A DNA stretch of 59,651 nucleotides, from positions 1 through 59,651 of the forward strand of contig NW_019218915.1 of NCBI RefSeq assembly GCF_002571385.2, in the 5' to 3' direction. How positions within the stretch are numbered: position 1 is the stretch's first letter; the number at the start of each line of letters is the position of its first letter. Positions 47,814 to 50,485 of the stretch are shown piece by piece. A program made the position numbers and the translations under genes. The notes beneath the pieces are model-generated. The model did no database searches. It was not told the origin of the DNA and saw only the letters and a program-made list of their open reading frames with translations. This DNA is from Stylophora pistillata (lineage: Eukaryota).

Positions 47814-50485
47814 GAGGGTCTGGATGGGGTTTAGTGTCAAGTGTTATTTGGCCGTTTTTTTTAATGTTTAGTGTTAAAATGGGTAAAATTTTAATGTTAA
47901 GCGTTTAAAAAAAGTTTAGTGTTAAGTGTTAAAAGGTATTAGAACAGCGATTTCACTCAATAAAGGTCAATAAAAGTTTTACAGAGAAAGCAATAATATT
48001 AGAAAAAAGGACTAAGATTTGTTCAAACTTAGCTCTTATGATAAAGGCGTGCAAACTAGAAACAAAAGGAGAAGAGTCTGCGCAGAACTAACCGAACTGG
48101 TCAGCATGCATACTTTGTACTCATGCGCATAAGTTCTGTAGACATTCTGTGGTCAGCGGTTTTTCAGCAGACTTCTGCATGCAAAATGGCCGCCTCGTCC
48201 GCATCGGCGGGAATTGCGGAAGTATTGATCAGCTTTTATAGATGTGGCGAGGAAGATGCTTTTGAGAGACATCGCAGTAGAATTCCAATCGGTATAGACC
48301 AAAGAAATCTAACGGACGCCAGGAAGCATATGATCAACTTTCTTGGTATTTCGCAAATGGCTACGTCGCTGGGTATGGGAAATTTCGAGCTGAAACTGTA
48401 CCGGCTGGCCAGGAGTGCTCACGGGAAAACGAAGAATTTACGTATCCTTACGCAACAACAGTGGGAGATGGAAGTGCCACTCCTTGTTTCTGACGAAACC
48501 CAAAGTGAACTCAATAGTAAGTAGACAACTGATCTGTCGAATTCATAAAGTGCAGGAAAAAGTTTTGAACTAATGATAAATATAACCACAACATATGTAT
48601 TAGAAAATTGGGGGTTACAAATTATCCTTATTCGATCTTAGAAAAGGATAATTACTTTGAAGGTTATAAGTATGAAATACTAAAGTAAAATTTCCTCTTT
48701 TTCATCTTTTTTAAGTACATGTGGTACAGAAAATAATTAATTGGTCAGACAAGAAAATGGTGCTTGTACCGGGTGTGAAGCAAACTCCTAAAGAACCTCT
48801 TGGTACTTCAACAAGTTCTTCAGAAGATAAAGATCCAGAAATTGCCATCATAGACAATGAGCCTGGAGCATCAGATTCTGCGAGAAATAGAAGTAGGAAA
48901 AGAAGACAAGAATGTCTGGAAGATAAAGAACTAGTTCAAAATATTTTGCGAGACAATAAAGTTGTGAGAAATGTGCGTCAGAGGCATGAATTAGATGAGC
49001 TTCAAGCAGGTAAATTTTAATGAAATAGGTGGTTTTTGAATTTCTACTTTTACTTGTACTTTTACCTTTACTTATGTGTTTACTTTTATCTCGCTTAGAC
49101 TTAGGGAAGCTTGCTGGAAGCTCAGCTCTTAATGAGGTGAAATTTACTTGTGGAGTCTGCAAGAAACCGTATTTTATCAGTACTAAGTCCAGCAGAACCA
49201 CCCAAGGGAAGGTCAATTACTTCAAAATCAGTAAGTTTAAACAAATATTTTTAATTTACCAATATCATTACTGCAGATCACATGTTTCAGTACTCAGAAT
49301 AAGAAAAAATAATAATTCCGAGTGTATTTAGGTGATAGTAACTCTGGTCTTTTGTATTCAGCTGATCTTCTAAAAGACTAATGAATGTTTATAATTAAGT
49401 TGAACTTCCCTTATCACTTTTTCAATAATCCCCATGGTGGAGAAATGTAAACCTAGGAATACACTGTTCACCTTTGCTAAAAATTTGTCCTTTGTAGCAC
49501 ATTTCAATAAGTGCCAAAGAAATTACGAGAAAGCACAGCGTTTAGTGAAAAACAACCACACCCTGGACAGCCTTTGGAAAAAAGGAAATTGTGAACGACT
49601 TTCTTCAGCATCAAGCAGCAATTCCATGTCACAAGATGAGCAGGAGGACTTTACTGGTGCTGATGCCATAGAAACAGGCTCTGACAAGTAAAAACCTTAC
49701 TGAAGAATATATTGTTGTATAAAAGAACTTTTTTTTGGATGAAAATCTAGATTATTATAGAACTCATGCATAGACATGTCATTACCATGTACCAATAGAT
49801 AATATTTGTTGTACACACAAAGATTGTTTAGCTTTTTCCTTAGATCTCAAAACCAATGTCTTTGACCAGCATTTGTAGTACTGCTGATAGAGTCTTAATG
49901 CATAGTTTTTGTTGATATTTTGAACTTAATGAAATAAAGCAGTTTATGTTTTTCAAATGCTACNNNNNNNNNNNNNNNNNNNAGTTTAGATTCAAGGCTT
50001 GCTTGCTGCTAATACATGTGCTAAGAAACAAGAGGATGGCTAGTGAGGATGCAACAGCCTTTTCCCGGTAGGTAAAAGGAGCATGATGATGATTAAATAA
50101 ACAAATTGTTCAAATGAAAGTTTGCGAAAGTGTGATAACGACAGAGGAAAATTTTAATTGTTAAGCATAATGTTCCCTTCTGCAGAGAAATAGTCTCCAA
50201 TGATTTTCCATGATAGAGACATAAACAATGAACAACACAAAATTGCAATCAAAATGACACAGTATGTAAATCAATTGTAGCTGATTCCATATTGAATGCC
50301 CGCGTTTATCGTTATCAGTATCTGGCGCATTTTTTAGCCGTTTCTCGTTACATTTGTATCAATTTTAGTGTTTCAGAGAATTTTTTAGTGTTAGATGTTA
50401 AACAGCCCAAAATTTTAATGTTTGATGTTATAGAAGGTAAAATTTTAGTGTTTAGTGTTTTCGAGATACCCCCATCCAGACCCTC
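47814..50485. mobile_element. 2.67-kb DNA transposon with 16-bp TIRs (GAGGGTCTGGATGGGG) and 6-bp TSD (ATCTAA), unclassified
   Basis: TSD at 47808-47813 and 50486-50491. Subterminal ttttartgtt repeats near both ends. Confidence 0.88.
48186..49691 (+). CDS. Predicted 4-exon gene (~316 aa) with a C-x2-C-x24-H-x3-C putative zinc finger; exons 48186-48516, 48716-49009, 49099-49230, 49498-49691
   Basis: Three GT-AG introns (gtaagt, gtaaat, gtaagt donors; pyrimidine-rich acceptors), all phase 1, join four ORF-track fragments into one stop-free frame. aaaATGG start; aataaa at ~49933. Confidence 0.75.

Follow-up and report, generated by a model that had tools for sequence, protein, structure and literature searches.

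Transposons of the P superfamily (P, 1360/Hoppel, Galileo, THAP9) have CA..TG termini, use GTP as a cofactor and cleave their ends with a stagger. Among other described systems, Sola3 combines GAG ends with a TTAA duplication, Harbinger encodes two proteins, and hAT elements resemble the coral element described here in the CxxC..HxxxC spacing of their BED-finger transposases and in a target preference similar to its nT..An. The target site duplications (TSDs) measure 8 bp for P and 7 bp for 1360 and Galileo (PMC3698922), a C/DxxH signature characterizes the P-type transposases, while IS3EU groups with IS481-like transposases (PMC10045372), and P makes an intron-retention repressor and the KP protein, the basis of an analogy that we draw below (PMC7776569).

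Here we describe an element in the coral Stylophora pistillata, at positions 47814-50485 of a 59,651-nucleotide stretch of contig NW_019218915.1 (the whole stretch analysed, hereafter the window). Like P, it has short terminal inverted repeats (TIRs) with subterminal repeats, and a truncated, putatively DNA-binding product through intron retention, and its transposase is predicted to have an RNase H split by a large insertion domain, an acidic C-terminus and an N-terminal zinc finger (PMC7776569). Both enzymes are of the DDE type with a DxxH motif, and the predicted coral fold covers nearly the whole 6p5a_A chain of the P structure (PDB 6P5A). The coral short form is nearer to KP than to the 66-kDa protein of P, as the retained intron precedes the catalytic core. 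Probably P-like in its working, the element yet departs from the definition of P in three respects: a C2HC finger and a PB1-like domain stand in place of the C2CH finger of THAP, the TSD is 6 bp and not 7-8 bp, and the termini are GAG..CTC instead of CA..TG. The coral enzyme further differs in a cluster of 11 cysteines between the first two catalytic Asp, in an insertion domain predicted to be interrupted by an NHL propeller and SAP, and in size (~1,480 residues for the predicted full form versus 751). Sola3 is alike in its GAG ends, but the coral TSD is 6 bp and variable in sequence. The hAT superfamily shares the C/DxxH signature and hAT6 the 6-bp TSD (PMC12730594), but the structural, Pfam and Atlas evidence for the coral element points to P, and its ends are GAG. 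Kolobok shares RR..YY ends and C/DxxH, with core zinc fingers in some lineages, but duplicates a 4-bp TTAA (PMC9587614), and IS3EU/GingerRoot shares the 6-bp TSD, but IS3EU ends are TAYGG..CCRTA (PMC12730594), unlike the GAGGG ends here.

We consider it likely, with a probability of about 0.72, that this is a young coral cut-and-paste transposon whose visible exons are the 5' part of a six-exon P-like transposase gene, ~4.2 kb of the element being hidden by an assembly gap.

The element, its copies and its surroundings

An earlier note on this DNA had described perfect 16-bp TIRs starting with GAGGG and a 6-bp duplication, ATCTAA, and both hold (Table 1), the window containing two matches to the TIR at up to 3 mismatches, where chance would give 0.10. 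In assembly G000 the exact TIR has 83 occurrences, and its reversed control none. Two families carry it, family A, which includes the window element and has TTTAGTGTT-like subterminal units, and family B, with ACTGACA-like units; the units are repeated with a spacing of about 30 bp, in one orientation at the two ends, and they are likely candidates for binding sites of the zinc finger. TSDs were scored over 31 end pairings, representing 30 elements with one paired twice, one pairing having an N flank and one lying in poly-A. A 6-bp duplication is exact in 16 of these and present with at most one mismatch in 23, a 7-bp duplication is exact in one, and an 8-bp duplication in none. The sole 7-bp case is a family-B copy (L039, C75:45533-48345). 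Four of the 31 pairings come from divergent families, with transposase identities of 35-58% and GAGG ends. Among 72 distinct target flanks, 46 have T at position 2 and 44 have A at position 5. The GAG..CTC termini are common to families A and B and to four divergent families. Thus the genome-wide TIR check proposed earlier reveals longer copies and a 6-bp TSD maintained across the family and its divergent relatives, and we likewise found no superfamily definition that fits GAG ends together with this TSD, with neither IS3EU nor Sola3 matching both. The literature searched holds no description of the lineage that we could find, and a name in Repbase or Dfam may exist.

Table 1. Features of the element and its flanks (window positions).
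Feature	Positions	Strand	Remarks
Left TSD, ATCTAA	47808-47813	.	Consistent with the family preference nTnnAn
Left TIR, 16 bp	47814-47829	+	Starts GAGGG
Left subterminal TTTAGTGTT-like units	47825-47930	+	Period ~30 bp
Exon 1	48186-48516	+	ATG at 48186; another in-frame ATG at 48123
Exon 1 and start of exon 2			Encode predicted beta-grasp PB1-like domain, residues 5-117
Exon 2	48716-49009	+	End of PB1-like domain, disordered basic linker, helices
Exon 3	49099-49230	+	C226-x2-C229 half of C2HC zinc finger
Exon 4	49498-49687	+	H254-x3-C258 half of finger, acidic tail; ends at phase-2 donor AA/GTAAAA
Intron 4, 5' part	49688-49963	+	Retention gives the stop TAA (49689-49691) of the 316-residue form
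Assembly gap, 19 N	49964-49982	.	Very probably conceals ~4.2 kb
Probable gap content			Rest of intron 4, acidic linker exon, intron 5, ~1,100-codon P-fold DDE exon
3' non-coding end	49983-50469	+	99.8% identity to copy C167
Right subterminal units	50359-50459		Same orientation as left units
Right TIR, 16 bp	50470-50485	-
Right TSD, ATCTAA	50486-50491	.

Shortened copies also occur. Seven older, internally deleted family-A copies (L043, L064, L065, L066, L067, L068 and L090, all in G000, mostly ~2.0-2.2 kb) have a transposase remnant that starts near codon 879-885, joined directly to exon 1 in those that retain it, and one gene model, P0026, reads through such a join; these copies probably form a non-autonomous subfamily. 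Identical sequence also extends beyond some of the ends. The copies L061/L062 (C396) and L046 (C18), on different contigs, are identical in the 12 bases that flank the left TIR, pointing to either a segmental duplication or allelic haplotypes; two left ends lie back to back in C99 (L066, C99:715447-717341) with identical outer flanks, and two in C222 (L071/L072) lie 137 kb apart, also with identical flanks. A search of G000 for a paralogous empty site found none.

Within the window the element sits among a tandem array of single-exon genes on the forward strand (12471-13799, ~33473-34570, 45404-46690 and 57545-58366), 73-78% identical in DNA, with a signal-like N-terminus, cysteine-rich repeats, a transmembrane helix and a Pro/Gln tail; Pfam matches none of them, and we take them to be Shisa-like. 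A decayed related transposase is recognized on the reverse strand at 18671-20073 (propeller and C-terminal pieces, E 2e-11 to P0003), around which no TIR was found at up to 3 mismatches. A 342-residue frame at 27440-28468, also on the reverse strand and with no Pfam match, resembles by eye the frames inserted in two family copies (L032:7561-8632 and L036:1711-4253), and it is probably another transposase family. Retroelement fragments, with integrase, reverse transcriptase (three) and GIY-YIG, are found at 9214-9840, 21588-22712, 32030-32974, 36545-38011 and 42178-42489.

The 316-residue protein

The four exons, the last one read on to 49691, are separated by three phase-1 GT-AG introns and translate into 316 residues, identical letter for letter to the database protein P0028, recorded under Stylophora pistillata in NCBI and UniRef (with the UniRef label 'n=2 Pocilloporidae'). 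The four-exon frame proposed in the earlier note is borne out in this way, as is its C-x2-C-x24-H-x3-C motif (residues 226-258), assembled from halves encoded by exons 3 and 4. RNA evidence for the junctions is available. Contigs of the polyA run X16 have intron 2 spliced, with the GT..AG joint, and exon 3 runs on into the first bases of exon 4 before a loose end, so that introns 2 and 3 are both spliced in this run. The Logan proteins P0025, P0036 and P0037 read through all three junctions, supporting intron 1 as well, and the contig of P0025 has 1,513 nt where the unspliced genomic span has 1,569 nt. No splice joints were seen in the RNA-library runs X15, X17 and X18, and their contigs are therefore either DNA or unspliced RNA. 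Two database models, P0027 and P0030, fuse pieces of the 316-residue gene to unrelated sequence.

Pfam recognizes no meaningful family in the four ORF pieces or in the whole protein, and an ESM Atlas query with it returned no usable match. The structure model of the protein has a confident beta-grasp domain at residues 5-117, whose top structural match is PB1 (1wmh_B, Z 7.8, rmsd 2.6, 81 residues aligned), a modest score within the range of a common fold, other ubiquitin-like folds matching as well. The Pfam PB1 family is found in one distant relative, P0223, at E 5.8e-5 and 23.4 bits against a cut-off of 23.6. Foldseek matches of the model are weak and generically beta-grasp, including bacterial superantigen-like folds, which we read as a shared fold and nothing further. 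As the N-terminal domain filled the list of matches, the zinc finger is left without a structural match of its own.

The transposase of the longer copies

Relatives of the transposase found in longer copies, of ~1,100 residues, are present in corals, an octocoral, mussels and a priapulid. The frames of the young family correspond to the P0003 cluster, of 126 members including P0042 of P. verrucosa, and are 94-98% identical to C167. Across the 26 full-length relatives, with identities down to 20%, D163, D329 and E893 (P0003 numbering) are invariant, and D362 is kept in 23. In most relatives, including 9 of the 10 young-family proteins checked, the second Asp is followed by a DxxH motif, and the stretch between the first two catalytic Asp contains about 11 cysteines. 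A crude comparison with three older copies gives dN/dS values of 0.25-0.47. No relatives were found in viral contigs. Two GAGGG-ended relatives (L147, L148) occur in contigs filed as bacterial MAGs and are probably contamination from an animal host.

The AlphaFold model of the 1,101-residue transposase (pLDDT 73, pTM 0.71) contains a six-bladed propeller at ~440-780 (best Z 28.7, with NHL proteins among the top matches), and it matches the P transposase chain 6p5a_A with Z 21.4 and rmsd 5.1 over 418 of 442 residues (model residues 15-956). In the wide VIA structure search, from which alone this match comes, 6p5a_A is the sole non-propeller among the best 50 matches; propellers fill the others, Hermes is not among them, and other transposases may rank below. 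When solved structures were searched by sequence, and by Foldseek with the same model, all matches were propellers apart from one weak unrelated entry. Pfam TNP-like_RNaseH_N (PF21787) is recognized in 4 of 14 members at a best E of 1.9e-4, below the curated cut-off, NHL and SAP are above cut-off in some members, and the Atlas neighbours of residues 10-440 are P-element families (at 0.91-0.92). On these grounds we predict a distant kinship of the transposase with the P element, and the earlier label of 'unclassified' stands for the ends and the TSD, which fit no superfamily definition that we found, but not for the enzyme, for which the fold, Pfam and Atlas predict P kinship. Pfam scans found no THAP domain; instead, the N-terminus has a C-x2-C-x(17-24)-H-x3-C motif and a beta-grasp domain.

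One gene or two

The stop codon of the 316-residue frame overlaps a phase-2 splice donor, and this arrangement is common to the window, C396, C18, L113, L116, L117 and L150. The overlap by itself reveals no regulation, as a phase-2 GTAA or GTGA donor always creates an in-frame stop. More telling are L113 and L114, which are 99% identical. The former lacks intron 3 and retains intron 4, and the latter retains intron 3 and precisely lacks the 393-nt GT-AG intron 4, its exon 4 joining an acidic linker exon in frame; L115 begins at that same acceptor. We read L113-L115 as partly spliced transcripts. Since the stop overlaps a donor that is spliced in L114, the so-called accessory gene is probably the transposase N-terminus, with its PB1-like domain and zinc finger. 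Likewise, the large transposase exon opens at an AG acceptor, without a conserved ATG, and the gene models P0012, P0017, P0018, P0070, P0074 and P0243 fuse the 5' exons to the transposase, while P0223 (1,475 residues) has the PB1 match, the CxxC..HxxxC finger and the transposase in one chain; these fused database entries are gene predictions.

The 316-residue product is a short form with intron 4 retained, seen in RNA-derived contigs; four of the six Logan members listed terminate at the intron-4 stop. The long form is what we deduce, as intron 5 is unspliced in L113, L114, L115 and L116 and spliced in gene models alone, and as none of the three family-A matches examined is a fused protein. 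Still, judging from these sequences, we think it likely that a long fused form is made from one gene.

The alternative, raised in the earlier note, is a two-gene transposon, in which a separate 316-residue accessory protein would act in trans with a ~1,100-residue transposase from a transcript of its own. Such a division would agree with the spliced RNA-derived proteins and NCBI models, which terminate at the stop, with an AATAAA at 49933 in intron 4, 240 nt behind this stop, and with the coverage in X16 of exons 1-4 and ~350 nt of intron 4, followed by almost no transposase. Within intron 4 the contigs of X16 and X20 break off at nearly one position, which hints weakly at a transcript end. 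The young family also possesses an in-frame ATG 7 codons ahead of the conserved start (P0003), but this ATG is GTG in C396 and C18 and is missing from L113-L116, which have an acceptor there instead. With the in-frame joint of L114 and the seven fused database proteins favoring a single gene, the accessory-gene proposal is probably wrong, and we regard two separate genes as unlikely.

The assembly gap

The earlier note had reported that no transposase was visible. That report did not weigh the 19-N gap, which sits at the very position of the transposase in longer copies, and the apparent absence is very likely an artefact. Two older copies, C396 and C18, follow the window as far as element base 2139 and then continue into a long, now broken, transposase frame, and C396 rejoins the window from element base 2170, that is, across exactly the N run. 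In C167 the right end of the element, at 99.8% identity, is preceded by a transposase 3' end that contains no stop and is 97% identical to P0003, and C608, 100% identical over 2,059 bp, ends at an N, as would be expected for collapsed near-identical repeats. In all four sequencing runs examined, contigs exit the window at 49958 with following sequence of the C396 type and enter it at 49983 from the sequence lying ahead of that point in C167, and the five bases before the gap (49959-49963) conflict with all four. A 4,560-bp contig of X15 reaches approximately transposase codon 525, and one 6,530-bp contig of X19 runs from a flank through the TIR to approximately codon 1020. Added to the end of C167, the latter amounts to ~6.83 kb, so that ~4.2 kb would be missing from the copy in the window. 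The full-length element is very probably ~6.8 kb long, with the remainder in the gap at this locus; as none of the contigs from the runs includes the flanks of this locus, the content of the gap is deduced from the family.

If, instead, this copy were a true internal deletion that kept the zinc-finger part only, its breakpoint would have to coincide with a short gap. The gap is indeed written as just 19 N, G000 has many internally deleted copies (0.5-3.4 kb), and a search of that assembly recovered no 5' half of the transposase for the young family. However, the older family-A deletions with exon 1 retained are built differently, exon 1 being fused to the transposase 3' end and the finger missing, a joint of 49958 to 49983 skipping the gap is found in none of the four runs, and the sister copy C608 likewise ends at an N. 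A deletion is thus quite improbable. The captured host gene also suggested in the earlier note, if placed in a non-autonomous member of hAT6 or IS3EU, two known groups with a 6-bp TSD, is hardly credible: those groups do generate such duplications, the ORF has introns and is annotated by NCBI as a host gene, but the homologues that we found, down to ~20-25% identity, belong to GAG-ended elements and in them precede the same P-fold transposase, the ends of IS3EU differ, hAT and integrase Pfam families have no match in the 37 proteins scanned, and the X19 contig leads from the TIR into the transposase.

A proposed mechanism

For a P-like transposon with a single six-exon gene, the following scheme may be proposed. 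Full splicing would yield the ~1,480-residue protein, with a PB1-like domain, a C2HC finger, an acidic linker, an HTH and an RNase H domain (all predicted), and with an insertion domain predicted to bear a six-bladed NHL propeller and a SAP motif. The C2HC finger, replacing THAP, would bind the subterminal units spaced by 30 bp, and cleavage at the TIRs and integration at nTnnAn, with a stagger of 6 bp, would fall to the DDE core, the duplication being observed and the chemistry presumed. Retention of intron 4 gives the 316-residue product, and this could compete for the element ends or poison oligomers. As the short form has the putative DNA-binding part and lacks the catalytic core, it may repress transposition in the manner of the P-element 66-kDa and KP proteins, a proposal by analogy that we make tentatively, at somewhat less than even odds.

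Age, spread and significance

Young copies are 99.8-100% identical to one another, and a second insertion site is found in runs X18 and X19, with flanks that read as a 6-bp duplication. Proteins of Pocillopora match 313-316 of the 316 residues, the protein being on record under both genera without a single difference, whereas the older copies in G000 match only ~75-86%, suggesting a recent horizontal transfer between the two coral genera. Run X5 covers the element with 0 differences over 2,120 bp and includes neither flank, and we do not count it as evidence of transfer. More broadly, and doubtful as it still is, these elements might constitute a GAG-ended sister superfamily of P in marine animals, with one family active, having crossed coral genera and having evolved its own intron-retention repressor.

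Overall, an 'uncharacterized' 316-residue coral gene is corrected to transposon DNA, and the case illustrates how gaps in short-read assemblies conceal the youngest transposases. With young, near-identical copies and intact database frames of ~1,105 residues, the family is a target for excision assays and a candidate native tool for gene delivery in corals. The P superfamily would be widened beyond the model of THAP and a 7-8-bp TSD, and the lineage would offer a natural test of what determines TSD length and of the use of GTP by an enzyme whose insertion domain is interrupted by a propeller.
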